In this document: positions 262-42,176 of the stretch, piece by piece
Layout of the letters: each line of letters opens with the position of its first letter
Position numbering within the stretch: the first letter of the stretch is position 1
DNA from: Thermoleophilaceae bacterium
GTDB taxonomy: Bacteria; Actinomycetota; Thermoleophilia; Solirubrobacterales; Thermoleophilaceae
DNA length: 64,000 nt
Reading direction: 5' to 3'
Assembly: GCA_035553855.1 (NCBI GenBank)
Contig: DATMJO010000163.1
Span: 1,403-65,402 of the forward strand
Position numbers and translations under genes: made by a program
Notes under the pieces: generated by a model
The model's input: only the letters and a program-made list of their open reading frames with translations
The model's database searches: none
What the model was told of the DNA's origin: nothing

Positions 262-993
262 CTACCGCTCACAGAGGGAAGCGAGACGAGCCACGGCCTC
301 GGTAAACGGACCGGTTCCCGGCCTGCCCGCGGCAGCCAGGCGCGCACAACCGCGCGAGCGCGGAAGTGCCACGTCCGACCGGCCGCCCCAGCGCTCGCCC
401 ACCGATCCGCCGCCGTTCAGGACCACGAGCGGGCGCGGGCCGACCCGCGCCAGCCGCTCCGCCAGGACCGCCGCGAGCGCCGGCTCGTCGGTCTCGCCTG
501 CCACGAGCACGACCGCCGTCGCGAGCGAGGCGGCCGGCGCCGCCTGCGTGACAGGGCCCGCGTCGATCACGAGCGGCGCGAGCCCCGCCAGGGCACGCTC
601 GGCCTCCGCCGGCCCCGCCGGCCCGACGAGGCAGAGCCGCCCGCTCGCTCGCGCGTCGAGCCCGCCGCGAGTGCTCGCCGCCCGGGCCAGGCGCGCGGCG
701 GCCGCGGTTCCCAGCGGGAGCCCGGCCGGGGCGCTCTCGGCCGAGACCGCCGCGGCGCCGCCCGGATCGAGCCGCGCGAGCTCGACGCCGAGCGCGCGCG
801 CCACCGTGGTCGCGCCCGTTCTCGCCCGGAGGCCGCAGACGGCGACGACCGGCGGGACGGCCGGCCCGCATGACTGCAACGAAGGCGGCGCGGATGCCTC
901 CTGCGCAGGCTCGAGCAGGAAGGCCTCGGCCCGCGCCAGAAGGGTCGAGAGGACCGATGGCGGGGTCGCTCGCGTCGCGGCTCGCTCACTCAC
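262..993 (-). CDS. hypothetical protein with a degenerate ParA/MinD/CpaE-like P-loop (no Walker A lysine)
   Basis: The segment VVAVCGLRARTGATTVARALGVELA resembles a deviant Walker A. The start overlaps the upstream TadE-like stop (ATGA). Its composition is protein-like, unlike the R/P-rich antisense ORFs. Confidence 0.5.
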   Translation of the reverse strand: MSERAATRATPPSVLSTLLARAEAFLLEPAQEASAPPSLQSCGPAVPPVVAVCGLRARTGATTVARALGVELARLDPGGAAAVSAESAPAGLPLGTAAAARLARAASTRGGLDARASGRLCLVGPAGPAEAERALAGLAPLVIDAGPVTQAAPAASLATAVVLVAGETDEPALAAVLAERLARVGPRPLVVLNGGGSVGERWGGRSDVALPRSRGCARLAAAGRPGTGPFTEAVARLASLCER

Positions 994-1361
994 GGCGCCT
1001 CCACGTGCGCCGACTCCGAGACCTCCAGGGTGCGTGCGACTGCGTCGATCGGAGCCGGCGGGCGCATCCGGATACGCACCGTTCCGCCGGACTCGCTGAC
1101 TCGCATCCGGGCGCGTGACCAGCCAGGCACCGCGCGGCGCGCCGCGCGCTCGGCGTCGCCCCCCGCCGCCACGGCGAGCGCTCCGGCCTCGGCCGCCGCC
1201 GCCGCGAGCGACTTCGAATAGCCGACGGCGAGCAGTTGCATCAGCGCGAGCCCCACGAGGACGAGAGCCGGGAGCGCGCCGACCGCCTCGACGGTCGCCT
1301 GTCCGCGCTCACCTGCGCCGGCCGGGGGCCGACCGGCGCGCGACTGCGGCGAGGAACTCAT
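990..1361 (-). CDS. TadE/TadG-like pilus assembly (pseudopilin-like) protein
   Basis: The N-terminus GQATVEAVGALPALVLVGLALMQ matches the TadE-type G-Q-x-x-V-E motif followed by a hydrophobic helix. Confidence 0.65.
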   Translation of the reverse strand: MSSSPQSRAGRPPAGAGERGQATVEAVGALPALVLVGLALMQLLAVGYSKSLAAAAAEAGALAVAAGGDAERAARRAVPGWSRARMRVSESGGTVRIRMRPPAPIDAVARTLEVSESAHVEAP

Positions 1362-1419
1362 CGGCTGCCTCCCAGAGCGCCCGCGGCGGGCCCGCCGGCG
1401 CGCGACCGCAGCGAGGGAT

Positions 1420-1770
1420 TCATCCGCCGCCTCCCAGCGAGGCCTCGGCGGAGACGCTCACCGGCGACCGCCAGCGCGGGTGGACGAACGGCACCCGCAG
1501 GCGCACACGCACCGCTCCGTCGCGCCGCTCGACCCGCAGACCGCGCTCCATGCCCCGCGGCAACGCGCTGCGCGCCGCGGCGCGGGGGTCGCGACCGACG
1601 AGGTCGGCCCGGGCGGCCACCCGCGCCGCGTTGCCCACGAGCCAGAGCGCGTGCCCCGCGAGCGCGAGTTGCCAGACGATCAGGGCGCCCGCGATGAGCG
1701 CGGGAATCGAGGCGACGAACTCGACCGACGCCTGCCCAGCCTCCGGGCCCGTGACGCGCGTGAGGGGCAT
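1420..1770 (-). CDS. TadE-like protein
   Basis: The N-terminus GQASVEFVASIPALIAGALIVWQLAL carries the TadE signature. Confidence 0.7.
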   Translation of the reverse strand: MPLTRVTGPEAGQASVEFVASIPALIAGALIVWQLALAGHALWLVGNAARVAARADLVGRDPRAAARSALPRGMERGLRVERRDGAVRVRLRVPFVHPRWRSPVSVSAEASLGGGG

Positions 1771-1920
1771 GCGCCCGAGGATCGCGGGGAGCGCGTGAGG
1801 GCCGGGTTCCGCGCGTTACGGGCGCGCGACGGGCGGGTGACGAAGCCGTATCGCCCGGACGACTATGCAGAACAGCACGCCATGCGACCCCCAACTGCAT
1901 GGTCGCCGCCGAGGACAGGG

Positions 1921-1945
1921 TGAAACAGTGCCTGGCACTGTTTCA
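1921..1945. terminator. perfect 25-nt palindrome (12-bp arms), a hairpin just downstream of the minus-strand membrane-protein gene
   Basis: TGAAACAGTGCC-T-GGCACTGTTTCA lies 16 nt after the stop at 1961. There is no U-tract. Confidence 0.45.
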
Positions 1946-1960
1946 GCGCTCGGCCGGACC

Positions 1961-2314
1961 TCAGTACTCGCGCGAGGTCCGGTAGACCCAGAAGAGGCCG
2001 TAGGAGGCGCCGGCCAGAAGGCCGACCCACAGGAGCGCGCCGCCGCCGCCGTAGCCGAACAGGCGCGAGGCCGCCGTGAACGCCCAGAGGATCGCGGCGA
2101 ACGACCCGTAGAGCACGATTCGCTGGCGGTCGGTGAGCGACTCGAGCGTGAAGCGGTGCTCGCGGTAGAGGCGGATGCCGAGCAGCGCTATCGCCGTGAA
2201 GAACGCGATCGAGAGGGCGGCGAGGAAGACCTCGAGCCCCGCGCCCCCGCCCGGGATCAGCACGATCACGAGGGCGATCAGGGCGACGATCCCGAGGTTG
2301 CGCGCGAACGTCAC
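1961..2314 (-). CDS. small integral membrane protein (about 4 TM segments)
   Basis: The sequence has hydrophobic helices (LGIVALIALVIVLIPGG, FLAALSIAFFTAIALLGI, and others) and sits downstream of uppP on the same strand. Confidence 0.6.
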   Translation of the reverse strand: MTFARNLGIVALIALVIVLIPGGGAGLEVFLAALSIAFFTAIALLGIRLYREHRFTLESLTDRQRIVLYGSFAAILWAFTAASRLFGYGGGGALLWVGLLAGASYGLFWVYRTSREY

Positions 2315-2350
2315 GGCAGAAAGGGTAATCCGGCGCCCCGCCGGGACGCC

Positions 2351-3166
2351 CTACGAGATCGCGCCGGAGCCCACGAGCGCGAGCACGAGCGTGCCCAGCG
2401 CGACGCGGTAGACGACGAACACGGCGGTCGAGTGCGTCACGAGGAAGCGCAGCAGGAACGCGATCGACGCGTAGCCCGATACGAACGCGAGCAGCGTCGC
2501 CACGGCGACCCCCGCGACCGAGGTGTCGTGGCCGCTGACCGCGTCGGGAAGCTGGAACAGCCCGCTCAGCACGACGGCCGGGACCGACAAGAGGAACGAG
2601 AAGCGCGCCGCCGCCGCCCGCTCGAAGCCAAGGAAGAGACCGGCCGTGATCGTCGCCCCGGAGCGGGACACGCCCGGCACGAGCGCGGCCGCCTGGGCGA
2701 ACCCGATCGCGACGGCGTCGCGCAGCCCGACAGAGCGGATGTCCCGGTCGCGCTTCGACACGCGCTCCGAGAGAAGGAGCAGCAGCCCGAGCGCGATCAG
2801 GGCGATAGCGATCAGGTAGAGGTCGCGCGCGCCGTCCTCGATCTGGTCCTGGAAGGCGAGCCCGAAGATCCCGATCGGGATCGTGCCGATGATCAAATAC
2901 CAGCCGAGCCGCGCGTCCAGCTCGCCGCGGCGCGACGGGTCGCGCAGGCTCGCCGTCCACGCGACCGCGATCCGCCACAGGTCCTGGCGGAAGTAGACGA
3001 GCACCGCGAGCATCGTCCCGAGCTGCGTGACCGCGGTGAAGGCGGCGCCGGGGTCCTCCCACCCCGCGAAGGCCGGGACGATCCGGAGATGGCCGGTGCT
3101 CGAGATCGGCAGGAACTCTGTGAGCCCCTGGACGATCCCGAGGACTATCGCCTCGAGGATGGACAC
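2351..3166 (-). CDS. uppP: undecaprenyl-diphosphate phosphatase (BacA/UppP)
   Basis: The sequence MSILEAIVLGIVQGLTEFLPISSTGHL and a later PGVSRSG segment are classic UppP motifs. Confidence 0.93.
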   Translation of the reverse strand: MSILEAIVLGIVQGLTEFLPISSTGHLRIVPAFAGWEDPGAAFTAVTQLGTMLAVLVYFRQDLWRIAVAWTASLRDPSRRGELDARLGWYLIIGTIPIGIFGLAFQDQIEDGARDLYLIAIALIALGLLLLLSERVSKRDRDIRSVGLRDAVAIGFAQAAALVPGVSRSGATITAGLFLGFERAAAARFSFLLSVPAVVLSGLFQLPDAVSGHDTSVAGVAVATLLAFVSGYASIAFLLRFLVTHSTAVFVVYRVALGTLVLALVGSGAIS

Positions 3167-3178
3167 GGCCGGGGAACC

Positions 3179-3709
3179 CTAGTCGCGCTGCGCCTGCGCC
3201 TCCGCGAAGCGCCTGCGGGACGCCTCGATCTCGGCGAGCGCGTCCTCGCGGGAGTACCAGCCGTCGACCTTGACCTTCTTGCGCTCGAGGTCCTTGTAGA
3301 TCGAGAAGAAGTGGGAGATCTCGTCCCGCAACTGCTTCGAGATGTCCTCGAGCGAGTCGAGCGCGTTCCAGCCCGGGTCGTTCACGGGGACGCACAGCAC
3401 CTTGTCGTCCACCCCCATGTCGTCCTCCATCCGGAAGAGCGCGATCGGCTTCACCTCGATCAGGCAGCCTGGGAAGGTGGGCTCCGACACGCAGACCATC
3501 GCGTCGAGCGGGTCGGTGTCGAGCGACAGCGTGTCCGGGAAGAAGCCGTAGTCCGTCGGGTACACGACCGAGGAGAAGAGAAACCGGTCGAGCTTGATCC
3601 GGTGCGTCTCGTGGTCGAACTCGTACTTGTTCCGGCTCCCCTTGGGGATCTCGATGATGGCGAACAGGTCGGAGTCCGGCACGGCAACGGCGACTCTAAC
3701 CGGTACCAT
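3179..3709 (-). CDS. ppa: inorganic pyrophosphatase (family I)
   Basis: IEIPKGSRNKYEFD and YPTDYGFFPDTLSLDTDPLDAMV are the family I PPase active-site signature. Confidence 0.93.
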   Translation of the reverse strand: MVPVRVAVAVPDSDLFAIIEIPKGSRNKYEFDHETHRIKLDRFLFSSVVYPTDYGFFPDTLSLDTDPLDAMVCVSEPTFPGCLIEVKPIALFRMEDDMGVDDKVLCVPVNDPGWNALDSLEDISKQLRDEISHFFSIYKDLERKKVKVDGWYSREDALAEIEASRRRFAEAQAQRD

Positions 3710-3717
3710 CCCGGCCC

Positions 3718-3957
3718 ATGCGGACCGCCGTCCTCTCGCTGATCCTGCTCCTCGCGACCGCCGCCCCGGCGCTCGCCAAGCCGAACGGCGAGGGTCTCGC
3801 CGGCGAGACCGACGACAAGGTCGTGACCTTCTTCTCGCTCGGCGTCGTCGTCTTCTTCACGCTGGTCGTGATCCTCGGCTCGATCGCCCAGCACCTGCTG
3901 GACAAGCGCAAGCAGGAGCAGAAAGCCGCGAAGCTCCGCCAGCGCGAGGGCTGGTAG
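3718..3957 (+). CDS. small secreted/membrane-anchored protein
   Basis: It has a signal peptide (MRTAVLSLILLLATAAPALA), one TM helix and a basic tail. Confidence 0.5.
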   Translation: MRTAVLSLILLLATAAPALAKPNGEGLAGETDDKVVTFFSLGVVVFFTLVVILGSIAQHLLDKRKQEQKAAKLRQREGW

Positions 3958-3969
3958 CCCTCCACCTCC

Positions 3970-4731
3970 ATGCCCGGCCCCGTGAGCTACGAGCGCCGCG
4001 GCGCTGCGGCGGTGCTGACGATCGACCGGCCCGAGCGGCGCAACGCCGTCGACGGCGAGACGGCCGACGCGCTCGCGCAGGGCTACCGGGACTTCGTCGC
4101 AGACGACGACGCGCGCGTCCTGATCCTCACCGGCGCGGGCGGCGTCGCCTTCTGCGCGGGCGCCGACCTGAAGGCGATCGAGTCGCTCGGCCCGCGCCTC
4201 GACACCCCCGAGGGCCCGCTCGGCTTCACCCGCCTGATCTCGCCGAAGCCCACGATCGCCGCGATCGAGGGCTGGTGCCTCGCCGGCGGGCTCGAGCTTG
4301 CGCTCTGGTGCGACCTGCGGATCGCGAGCGAGGGATCGACGCTCGGCTTCCCGGAGCGCCGCTTCGGCGTCCCGCTTATCGACGGCGGCACGCAGAGGCT
4401 GCCGCGCATCGTGGGTCTCGGGCGCGCGCTCGACATCATCCTGACCGGCCGTATGATGCCCGCGGCCGAGGCGCACGCGATGGGGCTCGTCAACGAGATC
4501 GTGGCCGACCCGCTCGAGCGCTCGCTGGAGCTGGCCGAGGCACTCGCGCGCTTCCCGCAGGAGACGATGCTCGCCGACCGCCTCGCCGCGATCGAGGGCA
4601 TCGGCATGACCTTCGAGGACGGCCTCGAGCGCGAAAAGCGAAACGGCACGCCGCTGCTCGAGGTCGCCTGGAAGGGCGCCGCGCGCTTCGCCGCCGGTGA
4701 GGGGCGCGGCGGCGCCGGGGCCGGCGCCTGA
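3970..4731 (+). CDS. enoyl-CoA hydratase/isomerase (crotonase) family protein
   Basis: LTIDRPERRNAV, FCAGADLK and AAIEGWCLAGGLELALWCDLR are crotonase-fold motifs. Confidence 0.9.
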   Translation: MPGPVSYERRGAAAVLTIDRPERRNAVDGETADALAQGYRDFVADDDARVLILTGAGGVAFCAGADLKAIESLGPRLDTPEGPLGFTRLISPKPTIAAIEGWCLAGGLELALWCDLRIASEGSTLGFPERRFGVPLIDGGTQRLPRIVGLGRALDIILTGRMMPAAEAHAMGLVNEIVADPLERSLELAEALARFPQETMLADRLAAIEGIGMTFEDGLEREKRNGTPLLEVAWKGAARFAAGEGRGGAGAGA

Positions 4732-4778
4732 CGGACGAGCCCGAGATCCCGAAGGGCAGGGCGCGCCGCTCCGCAAAG

Positions 4779-6137
4779 GTGTCGGCGGCGCTCGGCGGTC
4801 AGGGCGCCCGGATCGCCGGCGCGACCGCGGCAAACCGCCTGCGCGGCTCCGACCGCTCGCAGGCGAGGCTCGAGCGCCGCCATCTCGAGGCCGCCGAGCG
4901 CATGGTCGAGCTGCTCGGCACGATGAAGGGCGCTGCCATGAAGGTCGGCCAGCTCGCCTCCTTCCTCGAGCTCGACTTCGTCCCCGACGAGTTCCGCCCG
5001 CTCTACCAGGAGAAGCTCGCGTCGCTGCGGGACTCCGCCCCGCCCATGTCCTGGAAGCAGGTGCGCGGCGTGCTCTCGGAGGACCTCGGCGAGCCGCCCG
5101 AGTCCGTCTTCGACGAGCTCTCGGAGGAGCCCGTGGCCGCCGCCTCGATCGGGCAGGTCCACCGCGGGCGCCTGCCGGACGGGCGCGAGGTCGCCGTGAA
5201 GGTCCAGTACCCGGGCGTCGCCGAGGCGATCAGGGCCGACATGCAGAACGCCGGCGCGATCGTCGCGCTCGTGAAGGCCATCTCCCCCGGCCTCGACGCG
5301 CGCGCGATCGCCCGTGAGATCCGCGAGCGCATGATGGAGGAGCTCGACTTCGAGCACGAGGCACAGGTGCAGCGCCTGTTCGCGCGCGCCTACCGCGGCC
5401 ACCCCTTCATCCACGTCCCGGAGGTCATGACCGAGCTTTCGCGCCCGCGCGTGCTCGTGTCCGGCTGGGCCGAGGGCATCCGCTTCGCCGAGATCAGGGA
5501 GCTTCCGCAGGCCGAGCGCGACCGCTTCGGCGAGATCGTGCACCGCTTCTACTACGGGTCGATCCACCACCTCGGGGTATTCAACGCCGACCCCCACCCG
5601 GGCAACTACCTGCTGCGGGACGACGGCCGCGTGGTGTTCATCGACTTCGGCGCCTCGAAGGAGCACAGGGGCGCCCAGGGCGGGCGCTTCCTGCAGATCA
5701 TCAAGGCCGCGAGCGAGCGCGACGCCGACGCCTACAAGAGTCAGCTCGTGGAGCTCGGCTACCTCAAGAGGCCCGACGGCATCGAGGCCGAGCGGCTGCT
5801 GGACACGATCTACTCGCTGGCCGGCTGGTACCTCGAGGACCGCGAGTTCACGATCGACCCCGAGTACGTGCGCGGGGTGATGGCCGCCGGGGCGGACCCG
5901 CGTGGCGGCAACCTCGACGTGATGCGCCGCGCCGCCCTCCCCGCCGAAGACCTGATGCTCCGCCGGCTGGAGGCCGGCGTCGTCGCCGTGCTCGGCCAGC
6001 TGCGGGCAACCCGCAACTGGCACCGGATCTCACGCGAGTGGTGGTTCGGCGACCCGCCCGCCACGAAGCTGGGCGAGGCCGACCGCGAGTTCTGGGAGCG
6101 GACCGGCCGCAGCAAGGCGCGCTCGCGCATTCGCTAG
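4779..6137 (+). CDS. ABC1/UbiB-family atypical kinase; the true start is possibly CTG at 4728
   Basis: AMKVGQLASF, AAASIGQVHRGRL, EVAVKVQYPG and FNADPHPGNYL are ABC1 motifs. A family-typical N-terminal segment is encoded in frame upstream of the first canonical start. Confidence 0.9.
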   Translation: MSAALGGQGARIAGATAANRLRGSDRSQARLERRHLEAAERMVELLGTMKGAAMKVGQLASFLELDFVPDEFRPLYQEKLASLRDSAPPMSWKQVRGVLSEDLGEPPESVFDELSEEPVAAASIGQVHRGRLPDGREVAVKVQYPGVAEAIRADMQNAGAIVALVKAISPGLDARAIAREIRERMMEELDFEHEAQVQRLFARAYRGHPFIHVPEVMTELSRPRVLVSGWAEGIRFAEIRELPQAERDRFGEIVHRFYYGSIHHLGVFNADPHPGNYLLRDDGRVVFIDFGASKEHRGAQGGRFLQIIKAASERDADAYKSQLVELGYLKRPDGIEAERLLDTIYSLAGWYLEDREFTIDPEYVRGVMAAGADPRGGNLDVMRRAALPAEDLMLRRLEAGVVAVLGQLRATRNWHRISREWWFGDPPATKLGEADREFWERTGRSKARSRIR

Positions 6138-6156
6138 CATTCATCGAACCAGATCG

Positions 6157-6465
6157 ATGAAGCGCCTGAACGTCATAGGTTGCGCTCTCTCGGGCACGGA
6201 GCTCGAGGCCCGCGCCCGTCTCGCGGGGCGTCTGGCTCCGGCCGTCGAATCGGTCGAGCGGCGCCCGCGCGCTGCGGAGATCGCCTTCGGCCCCGATGTG
6301 GACGAGGAGCTGGTGCTCGATCTTGCGCGCCGCGAGCGGGAGTGCTGCTCGTTCTTCGAGTTCGCCTGGAGCGCCTCCGACCGCCGCCTCGAGGTGGCGG
6401 TCCCCGAAGACCGCTTCCAGCCCTCGCTCGACGCCGTCGTCGCGGCCGTCACCGGCGATCTGTGA
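6157..6465 (+). CDS. hypothetical protein with an ECCSFF motif
   Basis: The composition is protein-like and contains RRERECCSFFEFAW (paired cysteines). I do not recognise the family with confidence. Confidence 0.5.
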   Translation: MKRLNVIGCALSGTELEARARLAGRLAPAVESVERRPRAAEIAFGPDVDEELVLDLARRERECCSFFEFAWSASDRRLEVAVPEDRFQPSLDAVVAAVTGDL

Positions 6466-7317: not shown

Positions 7318-8110
7318 AGACAGGCACGAGCCGCTTCTCGTGCTCGGCGTCGATCCGCGCGATCACCTCGACGTGGTCCTCGATGCCCGAGCCCCGCAGC
7401 TTCGTGGCCAGCAGCTCATCGACCTGGAACAGGCCCGAGGAGTTGTTCATGTCGATCGCTATGCGCACGGCCTTCTCCTCCCCCGCGTCGATCGTCACGC
7501 TGTCGATCGCGACCGCCGATAGCGAGTGGATGTTCGGCCGGCCCTGCTCGAACGGGACGCGCGAGCGCCCCTCCGCCATGTCGAGCGCGTCCGCGACGCG
7601 CACGATCCCGGCCTCCACCGTCATCGGGTCGCCGCGGCGGCGGTGGCCGATGATCGCGTGGAGCGACTCGGCGACGACGATCGAGCGCTCCGGCTCGTCG
7701 TAGACCCCCTCGAGCAGCTGCGGGAGCTTCGCCTGCGCCATGAACAGGCTGTAGGCCTCGTGGTCGGCGCGGTGGATCGACATGCCGGCGTCGTGGAGCA
7801 GGCACGCGCCCGCGATCGCCACCTCTGCGTCGCGGGCCTTCATACCGTGGTCGGTGACGAGCGCGGGCTCGACGCCCGCCTTCGCAAGCAGGCGGGACAG
7901 GCGCAGCGCGATGTTGAGGACGATGCGGACATGGACCCAGCCGTGGTCCGACATCCCGAGACGGGTGGCCATCACGTTCTGGGCATGCCACCAGGCCTTC
8001 ACCTGCTCGTCGCCGTTGACGGCCTCCAGAAACCGCTCGAGCCGGCGGTTGCCCCTGGTCGGCGCGTCGATCCTCATCGCTGCCACGGCCTCGGCGGGGG
8101 TCTGCGTCAC
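7307..8110 (-). CDS. HD-domain metal-dependent phosphohydrolase
   Basis: H..HV, LLHDAGM and GHRRRG segments are consistent with an HD domain. The 3' end overlaps the convergent methyltransferase by 11 nt. Confidence 0.85.
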   Translation of the reverse strand: MTQTPAEAVAAMRIDAPTRGNRRLERFLEAVNGDEQVKAWWHAQNVMATRLGMSDHGWVHVRIVLNIALRLSRLLAKAGVEPALVTDHGMKARDAEVAIAGACLLHDAGMSIHRADHEAYSLFMAQAKLPQLLEGVYDEPERSIVVAESLHAIIGHRRRGDPMTVEAGIVRVADALDMAEGRSRVPFEQGRPNIHSLSAVAIDSVTIDAGEEKAVRIAIDMNNSSGLFQVDELLATKLRGSGIEDHVEVIARIDAEHEKRLVPVFRI

Positions 8111-36360: not shown

Positions 36361-37218
36361 GTGGAACTCCGCCCGATGAGGAGAGCGGACGCCGAGGACG
36401 CGTGGGCCGCCGGGCAGGCCGCATTCGAGGCGCGCGGCGAGCGCTGGCCCGCCTCGACCGAGCCGCCACCGCTGCGCTGGCGCCGGGGGGTGGAGCGCCT
36501 GCTCCACCTCCTCGACAGCGACCCCGGCGGCGCGTGGGTCGCCTGCGAGGGCCGGCGGATCCGCGGGATGGCCATGGCCATCGTGCGCGAGGGCATATGG
36601 GGCCTGTCGCTCTTCGCCGTGGACCCGGGCGTGCAGGGCAACGGCGTCGGGGGCGCCCTGCTCGACCGTGCGCTCGCCTACGGCCACGGGACGCGCGGGC
36701 AGATCGTGATGTCATCGCAGGATCCACGGGCCCTGCGGCTCTACTCGCGAGCGGGCTTCCGGCTGCTGCCCGCGCTTGCGGCGTTCGGCCCCGTGGACGC
36801 CGCCCGTCTCGAGCCCGAGGCACCCGTGCGACAGGGTATGAGCGGCGACTTCGAGATGGCGGCCAGAGTCGACCGTGAGATCCGTGGCGCCGCCCACGGG
36901 GACGACCTGCCGCACCTGGTCGAAGCGGGCTCGCTCCTGCATGTCGTCCCTGAGCGCGGCTATGTGGTCCACGCCGACGGCTCCCCGAGGCTGCTGGCCG
37001 CGCTCGACGAGGAGGCGGCACGCTCGTTGCTGGCGGTCGCGCTCGCCCACGCGCCGGAGGGCCTCGAGGCGGGGGTCCTGTCGCTCACGGCCGATCAGGG
37101 TTGGGCCATGGAGGTGGCCCTGGACGCCGGTCTCGCGCTCGAGACGAGCGGCCCGACCGCCGTGCGCGGGGAGCCCGGCCCCCTCGCCCCGTATCTGCCG
37201 AGCCCCGCCTTCCTCTGA
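36361..37218 (+). CDS. GNAT-family N-acetyltransferase (two-lobed)
   Basis: VDPGVQGNGVGGALLDRAL is an acetyl-CoA binding loop. Confidence 0.75.
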   Translation: MELRPMRRADAEDAWAAGQAAFEARGERWPASTEPPPLRWRRGVERLLHLLDSDPGGAWVACEGRRIRGMAMAIVREGIWGLSLFAVDPGVQGNGVGGALLDRALAYGHGTRGQIVMSSQDPRALRLYSRAGFRLLPALAAFGPVDAARLEPEAPVRQGMSGDFEMAARVDREIRGAAHGDDLPHLVEAGSLLHVVPERGYVVHADGSPRLLAALDEEAARSLLAVALAHAPEGLEAGVLSLTADQGWAMEVALDAGLALETSGPTAVRGEPGPLAPYLPSPAFL

Positions 37219-37458
37219 GGATCAGCCGGGCGCGGAACCCGCGCACCGGCCTGGAGAACGACACCTCCGAAGCGGCTCTGGACGGGCGCCGGCCACGGCG
37301 CGGATGGGGCGCTAATGCGAACGCGCCAAGTCGTCAGACACCCCGTCAGTTATTCGCGGGCCCCTCGTTCCATCTGCACCGAATGGGATCCCTCACCGCT
37401 CGTCGACCGCGAGCGATCCCGATCGGACTCGACATCTATCTGGGCAAGGAGGGTCGGC

Positions 37459-37479
37459 ATGGGCTACCGCGCTTGCTGA
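37459..37479 (+). CDS. 6-codon mini-ORF, MGYRAC*; candidate minimal precursor peptide or coupling uORF
   Basis: AAGGAGGG at 37446-37453 is followed after 5 nt by ATG GGC TAC CGC GCT TGC TGA. The stop lies 1 nt before the TTG that opens the flavoprotein ORF. Confidence 0.3.
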   Translation: MGYRAC

Positions 37480-37480
37480 T

Positions 37481-38218
37481 TTGACCGGTGCAGTTCGAAG
37501 TGCGCGAGGGCGTCCCACCGGGGCGCCCTCGTCCGTGTCGCGTACCATCGGCGCCGTGAGCGCCCTCCCCGTCGACCGGCTGCTCGTGGGAATCACGGGC
37601 ACACTCGGCATCTACGACTTCCTCTACTACGTCGAGGCGTTCCGCGGGACGGTCGCGAAGGAGATCCGAGTGATCCACACGCCCACGGCGTCGCGCTTCA
37701 TCGACCCGCAGATCGTCTCGATGATCGTGGGCTGCGAGGTCTGGACCGACTTCTGGGACGAGCGCGACGGCGTGCGGGTCCCCCACGCGGAGCTGCCCGA
37801 GTGGGCCCAGATGTTCATCGTGATCCCGGCCACCGTCAACACGCTCTCACTCGTGGCCCGCGGCGACGCCTCCGGTCTCCTCCACGCATCCGTGCTCGGC
37901 TCGCCGCGCCCGGTCGGTTTCGTCCCGAACATGAAGCAGAGCCTCTGGCGGGCTCCCGCGACGCGGCGCAACGTCGCGCAGATGCGGGAGGACGGGCACC
38001 TCGTGATGGACCTGGACGAGGGCGAGTACTTCCTCCAGCCGGTCGACAAGTCCCTGCCGCCGGACCCCGCGCCGTCGCCCGAGCAGATCGCGGCGTTCGT
38101 CCTCGAGCTCGCGCGCGCCTCGGGCATCGAGGCGGGCGAGGACGAGCTCCACCTCGCTCCGGCCGCAGAGGCGATCGAGCGGATCGACCGCGTGCGCCGC
38201 ACCTTCGGCCAGGCCTGA
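37481..38218 (+). CDS. HFCD-family flavoprotein (EpiD/MrsD/CoaC-like cysteine decarboxylase fold) with a C-terminal extension
   Basis: LLVGITGTLG, VPHAELPEWAQMFIVIPATVNTLSLVARGDASGLL (His plus a PASANT-like motif) and PNMKQSLW (PXMNXXMW-like) are present. The start could be TTG 37481, GTG 37535 or GTG 37556. Confidence 0.85.
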   Translation: MTGAVRSARGRPTGAPSSVSRTIGAVSALPVDRLLVGITGTLGIYDFLYYVEAFRGTVAKEIRVIHTPTASRFIDPQIVSMIVGCEVWTDFWDERDGVRVPHAELPEWAQMFIVIPATVNTLSLVARGDASGLLHASVLGSPRPVGFVPNMKQSLWRAPATRRNVAQMREDGHLVMDLDEGEYFLQPVDKSLPPDPAPSPEQIAAFVLELARASGIEAGEDELHLAPAAEAIERIDRVRRTFGQA

Positions 38219-38279
38219 GGCAGCGTCAGGCACAAGGCCCGGACTCAAGTTTCGGCTGCTCAGAGCCGATGTTGACAGG

Positions 38280-39725
38280 GTGTTTGATGAAGGCTCGAAC
38301 ACGGCGGGGATTCCGCGGCGGGTCCTGGCGGTGCAACTTCTCGCGCTGAGCGGCGCCGTGGCCCTCGCGGTCGAGCGCGCGGACCTCGCGAACTGGGACC
38401 TCACCCTGCTCGGAGTGCTGCTGCTCCTGGGGATCCTGAGCGACCTCTCCGGCTCGAACCTCGAGGAGCGCGAGGTCAAGATCTCAGGCAGCTTCCTCAC
38501 GCTCGTCCTGGCGATGGTCCTGCTCGGCGGCGCCCCCGCCGCTCTCGTCGGGGTCACGATCATCCTCGTCGGTTGGCTCCGCTGGCGCGAGCCGCTCGTC
38601 CACTTCGGCGCCAACATCGCGATCTACGCCTGGTTCCCGCTCCTGGGCGGCGCGCTCTTCCGGGAGCTCCGCGACGGATGGAACCTCGGCCCGGGCGACA
38701 TGTCGTTCTATCTCCTCGTCTTCATGGTGTTCATGGTGGCGCTCGCCCTGAACTTCGTTCTGGTCGCGGTTCACCTCCGGATGACCGAGGGCATCTCGGT
38801 GGGGCAGAGCCTCCGCACCATCTTCGTCCCGGTGCTTCCGTCGGAGCTCGCCGCGGCCCTGCTCGCCGTGGGGGCGACCTTCCTGTACGAGCACAGCGGC
38901 ATCGCGGTGATCGCGCTCTTCGGGATAGTGCTTGTGACCTTCCAGTACCTGCTCGGCGCCCTGCTCGTCTCCCAGGACCGCGCCCGCCAGCTCGAGCAGC
39001 GCACGGAGCAGCTCGCGACGGCACAGGCCGACCTCCTGAAGGCGCTCCTGCGCAGCCTCGACCTGCGCGACCGGATGACCGCCCGCCACAGCGCCGCCGT
39101 GGCCCGCTACGCCCGTGAGATCGCGCGCGCGGCCGGGCTTCCCGAGGAGCGCCAGCGCACCGTGCACCGGGCCGCCCTGCTACACGACATCGGCAAGTTC
39201 GTGCTGCCCGACCGCATCCTCAAGGCCAACGAGCGCCTCAGCGACGAGGATTGGGCGCTGATCAAGACCCACCCCGAGGAGGGCGCGAAGGTCGTGGCCC
39301 AGGTGGACGGCTACGAGGAGATCGCGGCCATCATCCTCGCCCACCACGAGCGGATCGACGGCCGCGGCTATCCGCGCGGGCTCGAGGGCGACGACATCCC
39401 GGTGCTCTCACGGATCATCTCGATCGCCGACACCTACGACGTCATGACGGCCCGCGACACCTATCGCGACCCGGTGCCGGCGGACGACGCGATCGCCGAG
39501 CTGCGACGCGTCTCGGGCGAGCAGCTGGACGCCTATCTGGTCGAGTCGTTCGTACGGGTCCTGCAGGGGCGCGACCTGCGCTACCTGCACGGCGAGGACG
39601 CCGACTTCGACGCCGAGCTCGAGCGCGAGCGCCGCTGGACCCCTGAGCTGGATGCCGCGACCGTCGCGGGCGCGCTCGAGGAGCGTCGGGGCTCGTCGCC
39701 GTCGCCCCTGAGCCTCCCGGCCTAA
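38280..39725 (+). CDS. membrane-anchored HD-GYP domain protein (c-di-GMP phosphodiesterase type)
   Basis: The N-terminal half is multi-TM. LLHDIGK and HHERIDGRGYPRGL form a canonical HD-GYP. Confidence 0.9.
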   Translation: MFDEGSNTAGIPRRVLAVQLLALSGAVALAVERADLANWDLTLLGVLLLLGILSDLSGSNLEEREVKISGSFLTLVLAMVLLGGAPAALVGVTIILVGWLRWREPLVHFGANIAIYAWFPLLGGALFRELRDGWNLGPGDMSFYLLVFMVFMVALALNFVLVAVHLRMTEGISVGQSLRTIFVPVLPSELAAALLAVGATFLYEHSGIAVIALFGIVLVTFQYLLGALLVSQDRARQLEQRTEQLATAQADLLKALLRSLDLRDRMTARHSAAVARYAREIARAAGLPEERQRTVHRAALLHDIGKFVLPDRILKANERLSDEDWALIKTHPEEGAKVVAQVDGYEEIAAIILAHHERIDGRGYPRGLEGDDIPVLSRIISIADTYDVMTARDTYRDPVPADDAIAELRRVSGEQLDAYLVESFVRVLQGRDLRYLHGEDADFDAELERERRWTPELDAATVAGALEERRGSSPSPLSLPA

Positions 39726-40037: not shown

Positions 40038-40913
40038 TTACGCCGCCTCTCGCAGGGCCGCCAGGTCCGACCGCGTCGAGAGGCGCCTGAGGGCACGTTC
40101 CTCGAGCCGCCGGACGTCACTCTCGGGCAGCTGCAGCATCCGGCCGGCCTGGCGCACGCTCTGCGGCTCGCGCCCGTGGGTGCCGAAGCGCAGCTGGATG
40201 ACGCTGCGCTCGTCCTCGGGCAGCTCGGCGACGGCACGCCAGATCGCGTGGGTCTCGAGGTTGTCGGCGACCTCCTCGTCCGGCGAGCGCTGATCCGTGG
40301 GCAGCAGGGCGCCGAGCGCGGTGTCGCCGTCCTCGCCCACGGGGGCGTCGAGGCTCGCGATGGTGCTGTCGGCGATGCGGGTCTCCAGGATCTCCTCGAC
40401 GTCGAGCTCGGTCGCGATCGCGATCTCCTCGACCGTCGGGTCGCGCCCCAGCTTCGCGGCGAGCTCGCGCTCGGCGCGGGCGATCTTGCGCGCGCGCTGG
40501 CCGACGTGCACCGGCAGGCGCACCGAACGGCCCGTGTTCGCGAGCCCGCGCTGGATCGCCTGGCGGATCCAGAGCGTCGCGTAGGTGGAGAAGCGGAAGC
40601 CCTTGCGCCAGTCGAACTTCTCGACTGCGCGGATCAGGCCGAGCATGCCCTCCTGGACGAGATCGCCCAGCGGCAGGCCCTGGCCCTGGTAGCGACGGGC
40701 GTTCGACACCACGAGCCGGAGGTTCGAGTTGATCATGCGGTCCTTGGCGTCGAGGTCGCCGCGCTCGATGCGCTGGGCGAGCGCGACCTCCTCGGCCGGC
40801 GTAAGCAGGGGGTAGCGAAGCGAGGCGTCGATGAGCAGCTGGAGGGCGTCCAGCGTGACATCGGGGTCGCGCTCGTGCACCTGGGGCTTGGGGGGGTCTT
40901 TAACTATTTCCAT
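40038..40913 (-). CDS. sigma-70 family sigma factor, group 1/2-like, lacking region 1.1
   Basis: [56 protein letters not shown] and RLPVH cover regions 2-4. Confidence 0.93.
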   Translation of the reverse strand: MEIVKDPPKPQVHERDPDVTLDALQLLIDASLRYPLLTPAEEVALAQRIERGDLDAKDRMINSNLRLVVSNARRYQGQGLPLGDLVQEGMLGLIRAVEKFDWRKGFRFSTYATLWIRQAIQRGLANTGRSVRLPVHVGQRARKIARAERELAAKLGRDPTVEEIAIATELDVEEILETRIADSTIASLDAPVGEDGDTALGALLPTDQRSPDEEVADNLETHAIWRAVAELPEDERSVIQLRFGTHGREPQSVRQAGRMLQLPESDVRRLEERALRRLSTRSDLAALREAA

Positions 40914-41123: not shown

Positions 41124-42176
41124 TCAGGCTGCGCGCAGGCCCTCGAGCTCACGGCACGTCGCGAGGCGCTCGAGCGCCTGGCGCTCGAGCTTGCGGACAC
41201 CCTCCGCCGATATTCCCAGGCGGCGCCCGGCTTCGCGCAGCGGGGTCGGCTCCTCGCCCTCGATGCCGAACCTGAGGCGCACGACCTCCCGGTGGCGCTC
41301 GGGCAGGTGCTCCAGGGCCCGCCGGACGGCGTCACTGCGAAGGCCGATCTCGACCTCCTCCTCGGGACCGGGGTCCTCTCCCGGGAGGAGCTCCCCCAGG
41401 GTGGTCTCCTCCTCGCCGACCGGCTTGTCGAGGCTCGTCACGACGCGGGCGGTCGAGCGCGCCTCCTCGATCTCCTCCAGCGTCAGCTCGGCCGTGGCGG
41501 CGATCTCCTCGTCGGTCGGATCCCGCCCGAGCGCCGCAGCGAGCTCGCGGCGGGCACGCTCGATCTTGCGTTCGCGCTGCCCGATGTGGACCGGGATGCG
41601 AATCGTCCGCGAGCGGTTGGCGAGCGCGCGCTGTATCGACTCGCGGACCCAGAACGTCGCGTACGTGGAGAACTTGAAGCCCTTGCGATGGTCGAACTTC
41701 TCGACCGCGCGAATCAGCCCGAGCACGCCCTCCTGGATCAGGTCGAGCAGGGGCATGTCGTGGCCCTGGTACTTCCGCGCGATCGACACCACGAGGCGGA
41801 GGTTGGCGTTCACCATGCGCTCCTTCGCCGCGAGGTCGCCGCGCTCCACGGCCTTCGACAGCTCGACCTCCTCCTCCCGGGAGAGGAGGGGATGGCGGCG
41901 GATCTCGTTCATCAGCAGCGCGAGAGCGTCGGTGGTCTGGCCCGCCAGATCGCCGTTCGAGTACGCCGTCTGCTCGACGGAGCGGCCACAATCGTCGGTG
42001 ACGTCGAGGCCGCGAGCCTCGATCTCGTCCTGAAGGTCGCGGAAGTCCGTCTCCTCGAGCCCCAGCTCGTGCACCGCGGTGCTCAGGTCGGACAGGTTCA
42101 CGCAGCCCTGCTCGCGCCCGGACTCGACGAGCTGCTCGATGCGGGGGTGGATGTCGCTGCCGGTCACGCCGCTCAC
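41124..42176 (-). CDS. sigma-70 family sigma factor, group 1-like, with a region 1.1-type N-terminus
   Basis: [19 protein letters not shown] is region 1.1-like. [56 protein letters not shown] and RIPVH are also present. Confidence 0.93.

Follow-up and report, generated by a model that had tools for sequence, protein, structure and literature searches.

Upstream of a gene for a flavoprotein of the homo-oligomeric flavin-containing Cys decarboxylase (HFCD) family, in a 64,000-nucleotide (nt) stretch of genomic DNA from a Thermoleophilaceae bacterium (contig DATMJO010000163.1 of assembly GCA_035553855.1; the whole stretch is referred to below as the window), lies an open reading frame (ORF) of six codons, MGYRAC*. 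Overall, we believe this ORF is best understood as part of a cassette of some 150-210 nt that consists of 5' stem-loops, a Shine-Dalgarno (SD) sequence, a 5-6-codon ORF inside its own hairpin and a strong GC hairpin, and that heads a group of major facilitator superfamily (MFS), flavoprotein and HD-GYP genes in a Thermoleophilia-like lineage. Our preferred reading, to which we assign a probability of roughly 0.5 from the sequence comparisons presented here, is that the cassette acts in cis as a translated leader ORF followed by a terminator; a cis-regulatory leader role in the wider sense, including the case in which the ORF is put to a second use, we consider likely. The elements themselves, their conservation, the codon-level pattern of the ORF and the presence of the cassette where there is no flavoprotein are direct observations.

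The comparison covers four flavoprotein-bearing loci in which the mini-ORF region is included (the window, L081, L082 and L092) and one flavoprotein-less locus, L101, from the Thermoleophilaceae metagenome-assembled genome (MAG) GCA_040901445.1, which carries the MFS_3 relative P0187. Loci L088, L094 and L097 were left out of the mini-ORF scoring because their contigs stop within the MFS gene. The features of the window are as follows.

37385-37420, + strand: 5' stem-loop, GGGATC..CGCTCG TCGAC CGCGAGC..GATCCC, a predicted hairpin, identical in L081 at 36/36 positions.
37421-37445, + strand: conserved linker, GATCGGACTCGACA..., homologous to GATCCGAACGACA ahead of the SD in L082, L092 and L101.
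37446-37453, + strand: Shine-Dalgarno sequence AAGGAGGG, read in the sequence, 5 nt before the ATG.
37448-37486, + strand: predicted hairpin P3 around the mini-ORF, in which GGUCGGCAU (SD/start spacer) pairs with UGCUGAUU (Cys-stop region).
37459-37479, + strand: six-codon ORF, ATG GGC TAC CGC GCT TGC TGA (MGYRAC*), read in the sequence, with homologues in other lineages.
37504-37532, + strand: 13-bp GC-rich hairpin, GCGAGGGCGUCCC acc GGGGCGCCCUCGU, terminator-like, without a clear U-tract in the window.
37543-37548, + strand: -10-like hexamer TACCAT, 7 nt before GTG 37556, a putative promoter element.
37556-38218, + strand: LanD-type HFCD flavoprotein of 220 amino acids (aa), with His77, PATVNT and PNMKQSLW, assigned from Pfam, alignment and predicted fold.
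38280-39725, + strand: membrane-anchored HD-GYP (HD_5) protein, PF13487 at E 2e-38, exact start codon uncertain.

Conservation of the six-codon ORF and its leader

As judged by its conservation, the six-codon ORF before the flavoprotein gene is real. An initial annotation of this DNA, made from the window alone, had described an SD and an MGYRAC* ORF separated by 5 nt (TCGGC), and both are present exactly as described; the low GC content that it had noted for the intergenic stretch likewise holds, at 0.61-0.64 across 37300-37499 against 0.70-0.80 in the flanks. The motif AAGGAGG is by itself common, occurring 8 times in the window where 3.9 occurrences are expected, and we therefore base the case for the ORF on conservation across lineages and not on the rarity of its SD. 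In L081 the ORF is identical at 21/21 positions, with no substitutions even at synonymous sites, and positions 37386-37415 are identical at 30/30, against 11-16/30 in the surrounding intergenic DNA. A regular-expression scan recovered homologues in L082, as AAGGAG-N8-ATG GCT CTT CGT GCT TGC TGA (MALRAC*), and in L092, as AAGGAG-N6-GTG GCC TAC CGG AAC TGC TGA (VAYRNC*), in both cases approximately 140-160 nt upstream of an MFS gene. The homologue in flavoprotein-less L101, ATG CCT TAT CGC AAG TGA (MPYRK*), has five codons and no Cys. The SD is retained throughout, as AAAGGAGG in L081, AAGGAG in L082 and L092, and GGGGAG in L101.

Thus, the search upstream of orthologues that the initial annotation had proposed, for an SD and a short ORF ending in Cys-stop with synonymous variation, yields an SD-led six-codon ORF ending in Cys-TGA in 4/4 informative flavoprotein-bearing lineages, located 0.1-1.9 kb from the enzyme gene. 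The consensus in these four is M-[G/A]-[Y/L]-R-[A/N]-C-stop; the Arg codon varies (CGC, CGT, CGG), and length, Arg, Cys and TGA are constant. Across all five lineages the SD, a start codon, a length of 5-6 codons, position 3 (Tyr or Leu, the Tyr codon being TAC or TAT) and Arg at position 4 are kept, and the ORFs of L082 and L092 diverge at 9/21 nucleotides. A control set of 99 sequences (978 kb), read on both strands, holds no further six-codon ORF that follows an SD, has Arg in fourth place and ends in Cys; dropping the SD requirement gave one unrelated match in 246 kb. A longer in-frame precursor ending in MGYRAC was also considered and was rejected, since the upstream frames differ between lineages through frame-shifting indels. 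Text searches of the full-text literature for GYRAC and for small HFCD precursors returned nothing pertinent.

The DNA ahead of the ORF is conserved to a degree that exceeds that of the proteins encoded nearby: the flavoproteins of L082 and L092 share 65% identity, but these two loci agree at all 21 nt leading up to the SD and start (GATCCGAACGACAAGGAGCTC), a stretch that resembles GATCGGACTCGACA...AAGGAGG of the window. The 37385-37420 stem-loop is unique within the window and lies in intergenic DNA that is otherwise only about 50% identical in L081, where coding DNA is about 83% identical; it occupies the position of a hairpin, P2 (GGCGC..GCGCC), that is found in L082, L092 and L101. In these last three loci P2 follows a long helix, P1, formed by pairing of blocks UGCGGGUUUCUACGG and CCGUUGAANCUUGUGCA, with compensatory changes in its apical part and several invariant G-U pairs, from which it follows that the structure belongs to the + strand RNA. 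Hairpin P3 is predicted in all five lineages from differing sequences (UCGGCA, ACAGCA or UCAGCA with UGCUGA; CUCAG with CUGAG; CCUCA with UGAGG in L101); it partly covers the SD, and changes in the spacer preserve its pairing. A GC hairpin of 11-13 bp (11 bp in L101) then follows the ORF in every lineage, its structure kept while its sequence differs, at a distance of 6-32 nt from the stop codon. A simple promoter and terminator scan made no call for this hairpin, the T run being missing, and found no sigma-70 consensus promoter. Rfam covariance models, searched at E up to 1-5, gave no relevant match in the leaders of the window, L081, L082, L092 and L098 (a locus described below). The cassette falls outside any described family; in its build it resembles the short attenuators, based on leader peptides, that precede transporter and resistance genes.

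The case for and against a proposed cis-acting leader

The gene neighbourhoods bear directly on what the cassette does. In L081 the order of genes is that of the window (cupin, GNAT, flavoprotein, HD-GYP), the upstream neighbour in the window being a GNAT acetyltransferase gene at 36361-37218. L082 and L092 both read Opp ATPases, MFS_3 (+), a 143-aa orphan (-), flavoprotein (+) and HD-GYP (-), and the mini-ORF heads the MFS transporter gene, about 1.9 kb from the flavoprotein gene. L101 reads Opp operon, leader, MFS_3, HD-GYP (convergent), alanyl-tRNA synthetase; the 143-aa gene is absent and no flavoprotein gene is present within 8 kb on either side, and the 290-nt leader nonetheless retains all of the conserved blocks together with its SD and MPYRK* ORF. 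The cassette must therefore have a role that is independent of the enzyme. The Cys codon is found solely where the flavoprotein is present (L098 not counted). Neither the MFS_3 gene nor the 143-aa neighbour has a homologue in the window itself, whose layout could have arisen from an order like that of L094 (leader, MFS, flavoprotein) through deletion of the MFS gene. MFS_3 relatives are numerous (738 at E <= 1e-40), and several of those listed are labelled Thermoleophilaceae.

Other features of these neighbourhoods are recorded here for completeness. The HD-GYP gene adjoins the flavoprotein or MFS gene in the window, L081 (3404-4813), L082 (4687-6114), L088 (2374-3747) and L101 (9217-10545); it runs co-directionally in the window clade but convergently elsewhere, and the window and L082 proteins are approximately 30-39% identical. 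The orphan protein of 142-152 aa (L082 3546-3977, - strand; also L088, L092 and L097) matches no Pfam family, has just 8 homologues among 5.8 billion proteins, is divergent from the flavoprotein gene across a 23-nt gap, and travels with the flavoprotein, being absent from L101 as well as from the window. An operon for an Opp-type oligopeptide ABC importer lies directly upstream of the cassette in L082 (1-1731), L092 (2-214) and L101 (1787-7711), an adjacency that may reflect nothing more than synteny or may have to do with the uptake of peptides. The segment 38245-38292 that separates the flavoprotein stop from the HD-GYP ORF is conserved in L081 (TCAAGTT..GGCTGC..GCCGATGTTGACAGGGTGTT); it contains a TTGACA as well as a small hairpin whose changes are compensatory. 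Past the HD-GYP gene, two sigma-70 family paralogues stand back to back at 40038-40913 and 41124-42176, both on the - strand.

The position of the flavoprotein start also matters to the argument. The initial annotation had correctly noted that TTG 37481, one nucleotide after the mini-ORF stop, opens the long frame that ends at 38218, and had taken the two ORFs to abut directly. That abutment does not survive comparison. In a family alignment of the window flavoprotein with 15 homologues, the homologues start 8-13 residues before the LLVGxTG motif, and the 86%-identical orthologue P0002 starts MSGLPVDR, matching GTG 37556; the segment 37481-37555 is poorly conserved, with an 11-nt indel relative to L081, and residues 1-27 of the 245-aa ORF have a predicted local distance difference test score (pLDDT) below 50 in the AlphaFold model. 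Alignment and model together place the start at GTG 37556, 76 nt past the mini-ORF stop. The alignment, the indel and the disordered residues led us to reject TTG 37481 and GTG 37535 as starts, along with stop-start coupling and a +1 frameshift.

A hexamer of the form TA(G/C)NAT precedes the flavoprotein start codon by 6-8 nt in 7/7 lineages, as TACCAT in the window, TAGGAT in L081 and L094, and TAGTAT in L082, L088, L092 and L097; several of these loci leave only 23 nt between the genes. The actinobacterial -10 box is TANNNT, and the flavoprotein mRNA is probably leaderless, as far as the hexamer and its spacing indicate. A leaderless mRNA would account for the lack of an SD on the flavoprotein gene, and would make unnecessary the alternative that the initial annotation had entertained, namely an upstream ORF (uORF) that feeds ribosomes to an SD-less gene. 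In L101, at 7985-8003, a TAGTTT stands 6 nt before the MFS ATG, right after the GC hairpin, in the same layout as before the window flavoprotein.

How might such a cassette work? P3 would partly sequester the SD and start codon of the mini-ORF. A ribosome that translates the 5-6 codons would open P3 and halt 6-32 nt before the GC hairpin, and this would then set the share of transcription that ends at the hairpin relative to read-through into the genes downstream. In the lineage of the window, loss of the MFS gene would have left the cassette directly ahead of the flavoprotein gene, which itself appears to have a leaderless promoter. We infer the translation of the ORF, the termination at the hairpin and the regulatory coupling from sequence features. 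The leader reading is favored because of the anatomy of the leader, its position at the head of an operon before an efflux-type transporter, and its persistence without the enzyme.

Several observations weigh against this model. In predicted folds that end before the 3' arm of the GC hairpin, the partner of the 5' arm differs from lineage to lineage, so that no conserved antiterminator was found. The stop-to-hairpin distance varies over the 6-32 nt given above, and no part of the cassette is less conserved than this spacer. A clear U-rich tail past the hairpin is found in L092 only (UUCUAUUC). In the window, in L081 and possibly in L101, the hairpin gives way directly to a -10-like box and a leaderless start, and the downstream gene there may not depend on read-through. 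For the MFS gene of L082 and L092 such a dependence is plausible, no conserved promoter being visible between the GC hairpin and the gene in these two loci. The mini-ORF has no repeated regulatory codons. Finally, a C-terminal Cys that is invariant in exactly the flavoprotein-bearing lineages is unexplained by a leader model.

Short leader-peptide attenuators are well known, among them the six-residue MsrD leader MYLIFM and the cat, cmlA and erm leaders. The cassette shares with uORF attenuators a strong SD, a 5-6-codon ORF with a GC hairpin right after it, a position at the 5' end of an operon for an efflux-type transporter, and partial conservation of the nascent-peptide residues. It differs from them in that no antiterminator was identified, in that both the ORF and its SD lie within a hairpin with a large conserved helix upstream, and in that the downstream gene of the window appears to have its own leaderless promoter.

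The flavoprotein and its possible peptide substrate

The hallmarks of the HFCD family claimed for the window protein are all present: it matches PF02441 at E 3.6e-17 and contains the motifs LLVGITGTLG, PH..PATVNT and PNMKQSLW. Its nearest solved structures by sequence are SpaF (7cfu, 2.5e-23), MrsD (1e-22), CoaBC (2.1e-14) and EpiD (1.7e-9), and a Foldseek search with the AlphaFold model (pLDDT 77) returned MrsD 1p3y as the best match (E 1.9e-14, target-normalised template-modelling score 0.85), followed by SpaF 7cfu, EpiD and CoaBC. The His of PHAEL (His77 in the 220-aa protein, H102 in the 245-aa ORF) is invariant in 16 family members and aligns with the His of MrsD SHVE, residue 75, the active-site His of that enzyme, as His67 is that of EpiD. 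The PASANT-like motif is present as IPATVNT, the P, A and T of which vary little or not at all across the family. This clade does not conserve the Asn of PXMNXXMW, Lys taking its place in the window and L081 (PNMKQSLW, 37930-37953); most relatives have PHMN..MW, P0011, which belongs to a RiPP cluster (RiPP: a ribosomally made peptide with post-translational modifications), has Gly, and P0012 has Ser.

A CoaBC identity was considered and rejected, with scores far below the cut-offs (TIGR00521, 90.9 bits against 219.7; TIGR02113, 54.1 against 261.4; far under the NCBIfam cut-offs for CoaC and CypD as well) and no PF04127 partner. As the initial annotation had it, the CoaB domain PF04127 is absent from the window protein; it is absent, too, from the close homologues and from the neighbours, so that no member is fused or adjacent to CoaB. 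The CoaC and CoaBC proteins share PF02441 and the HFCD fold with our flavoprotein, and differ from it in that its clamp region lacks Cys and its family is extremely rare and not universal: 17 matches were found among 5.8 billion proteins, and 5 cluster representatives at E <= 1e-30 among 1.84 billion. The flavoproteins of L082 (P0009) and L092 (P0005) are 55-58% identical to that of the window in the family alignment. Searches of plasmids with tblastn found only relatives of less than 37% identity, and a scan of genome contigs found almost solely CoaBC genes, the best match being 43% identical and located in a RiPP-like cluster of a Rubrobacteraceae MAG. By sequence and modelled fold, then, the flavoprotein is a rare LanD-type HFCD and not CoaC.

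In the proposal of the initial annotation, the two genes would form a minimal precursor and enzyme pair. MGYRAC or GYRAC, with ALRAC and AYRNC in the other lineages, would be the substrate of a stand-alone LanD-type Cys decarboxylase, the Cys being oxidatively decarboxylated to an aminoenethiol and the product exported, in other lineages, by the adjacent MFS transporter. The substrate role could be the sole function of the ORF or, more likely, could have been taken on by an older leader ORF, and in the latter form it is compatible with a cis-acting leader. We regard a substrate role, whether co-opted or retained, as possible but somewhat doubtful. To our knowledge, the only peptide chemistry of the HFCD family is decarboxylation of a C-terminal Cys, and Cys-TGA is present in all four flavoprotein-bearing lineages and missing in the one lineage without the enzyme, while the enzyme is nearest in sequence and fold to the peptidyl-Cys decarboxylases SpaF and MrsD and has a His in register with MrsD His75. 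The second residue of the peptide is small throughout (G, A or P), a feature that would permit removal of the initiator Met, methionine aminopeptidase being active before small residues at that position. The compact loci offer no other candidate substrate gene, and the ORF has remained 100% identical next to the flavoprotein gene after the loss of the MFS gene. From the literature, EpiD accepts substrates of 4-52 residues and needs no leader peptide (PMC8549060). Against these points, the cassette persists in L101 without an enzyme, so that a substrate role cannot be the only one, and the co-occurrence of Cys and flavoprotein may go back to one evolutionary event. The ORF of L082 and L092 lies 1.9 kb from the enzyme gene, before the MFS gene. 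The antepenultimate Arg breaks the rule for the C-terminal tripeptide of EpiD substrates (PMC8549060), albeit a rule for another enzyme. In the window clade Lys replaces the Asn of PXMNXXMW, though P0011, from a RiPP cluster, has Gly there. And because UGCUGA is also a strand of P3, RNA structure could constrain the Cys codon. Of the pair as first proposed, then, a LanD-type enzyme without CoaB and a Cys-TGA ORF stand; direct abutment does not, and the homologous leader and ORF occur without the enzyme as well. The small flanking hairpins that the initial annotation had read as marking a self-contained two-gene unit are indeed there (37230-37244 and 38253-38268), and the 13-bp GC hairpin inside the gap had been overlooked.

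In further support of a substrate role, more distant relatives of the flavoprotein lie in RiPP-type clusters whose precursors likewise end in Cys. In L099 (P0011, 47% identity), a 110-aa precursor ends in ...TRATLYARC* (VAATPVIASLTRATLYARC*) and is followed within 763-6159 by genes for an APH kinase, a HopA1-like lyase, an ABC exporter, the flavoprotein P0011 and a SnoaL-like protein; the combination of APH, HopA1 and HFCD proteins is familiar from class V lanthipeptides, thioamitides and kintamdin (PMC9415263). The precursor of L096 ends in ...RKCGWGC* and that of L001, from the Rubrobacteraceae MAG, in ...TTPSCWSC*. These two loci (L096 101-4650; L001 3226-6552) represent a second type of cluster, with precursors of 75-88 aa, a 450-490-aa protein without a Pfam match, a weak polyprenyl-synthase-like protein and the HFCD flavoprotein. 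In L095 (344-1934), the flavoprotein P0010 (about 50% identity) is encoded between an ABC exporter gene and a gene for a PEMT/ICMT-like methyltransferase; enzymes of the PEMT/ICMT type target C-terminal Cys carboxylates in other systems.

A metagenome scan with the pattern GGAGG-N4-8-ATGGGNTAYCGNGCNTGYTGA, designed for exactly the MGYRAC peptide, gave one match, L098, where ATG GGC TAT CGA GCG TGT TGA encodes MGYRAC* with four synonymous changes, between genes for GGDEF and sigma-54 response-regulator proteins. There is no flavoprotein nearby, the local fold is no better than that of shuffled sequence (z +0.75), and support for homology is limited to a shared 10-mer, TCGTCGACCG; at a rough estimate of 0.3 chance matches per scan, we have not counted this locus. 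L098 also contains near-identical SD/start modules at 1462-1510 (GAGGGAGGGTAGCCCCATGGGC) and 1657-1694 (GAGGAGGGTGGTCCCATGGGC), which start MGLDSARSRS* and MGYRAC* within the 950-nt gap between the GGDEF and response-regulator genes.

Comparison with known systems helps to delimit the substrate proposal. With LanD enzymes and their precursors (EpiD/EpiA, MrsD/MrsA, SpaF, TvaF, KinI; PMC8549060, PMC9415263), the window shares the HFCD fold, the catalytic His, the PASANT-like motif and a candidate peptide whose Cys directly precedes the stop codon; a leader peptide is dispensable for LanD enzymes, and four residues suffice for a substrate (PMC8549060). It differs in lacking a dehydratase, kinase/lyase or cyclase, in the absence of Ser and Thr from the peptide, which makes an aminovinyl-cysteine (AviCys) ring impossible, in a peptide length of 6 residues against 20-110, in the replacement of the PXMNXXMW Asn by Lys, and in its neighbours, which are an HD-GYP protein here and an MFS transporter and the 143-aa orphan elsewhere. 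The biarylitides, in which bytA (MRYYH) accompanies the P450 gene bytO, have the smallest known RiPP precursor genes (bioRxiv 10.1101/2020.07.21.214643; PMC12951456). As a concept, the likeness is that of a 5-6-codon gene that is itself the core peptide, placed beside a single tailoring enzyme. The differences lie in the class of enzyme and its chemistry, and in a mini-ORF that here also occurs without the enzyme, in L101, and carries the features of a leader RNA.

Two further explanations are considerably weaker. The leader could be a structured non-coding element, or a small RNA, in which the hairpins are functional and the start and stop codons incidental. The ORF does lie wholly inside a conserved hairpin, the window and L081 differ at no position even among synonymous sites, and the long helix P1 is present in L082, L092 and L101. 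However, five lineages retain a start codon with an SD 5-8 nt away and a stop in frame, even though L082 and L092 differ at 9/21 nucleotides, the third position of the Arg codon is free while Arg is kept, the length is steady at 5-6 codons and no Rfam family matches, and we consider this explanation unlikely. As for a uORF coupled to a flavoprotein starting at TTG 37481, a +1 frameshift fusion or a longer ...MGYRAC precursor, suggested by the position of that TTG one nucleotide past the stop and by a flavoprotein gene without an SD, the conserved start at GTG 37556, the 11-nt indel, low L081 identity and modelled disorder across 37481-37555, the 13-bp hairpin and -10-like box that intervene, and upstream in-frame translations that are not conserved make it highly improbable.

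Implications for the Thermoleophilia-like lineages

The natural contrast between lineages, with a Cys codon where there is a flavoprotein and none where there is not, makes the question of a second role directly testable. Should the peptide be a substrate, decarboxylation would yield a peptide of five or six residues that bears an aminoenethiol at its C-terminus and would be exported by an MFS transporter in sister lineages, and the modified peptide might be read by the membrane-bound HD-GYP phosphodiesterase that is always adjacent, which would link peptide modification to c-di-GMP (cyclic dimeric GMP) signalling. At 21 nt including the stop codon, the ORF would rank with the smallest known genes that encode a product, and would represent a RiPP precursor born from a regulatory uORF, with six codons and a single tailoring step. 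If, on the other hand, the cassette is a leader only, it would be an undescribed, structured uORF-plus-terminator leader, absent from Rfam, that heads a common MFS family in Thermoleophilia-like Actinomycetota, and it would provide a handle on the inducer of the MFS pump and of the HD-GYP signalling protein linked to it.

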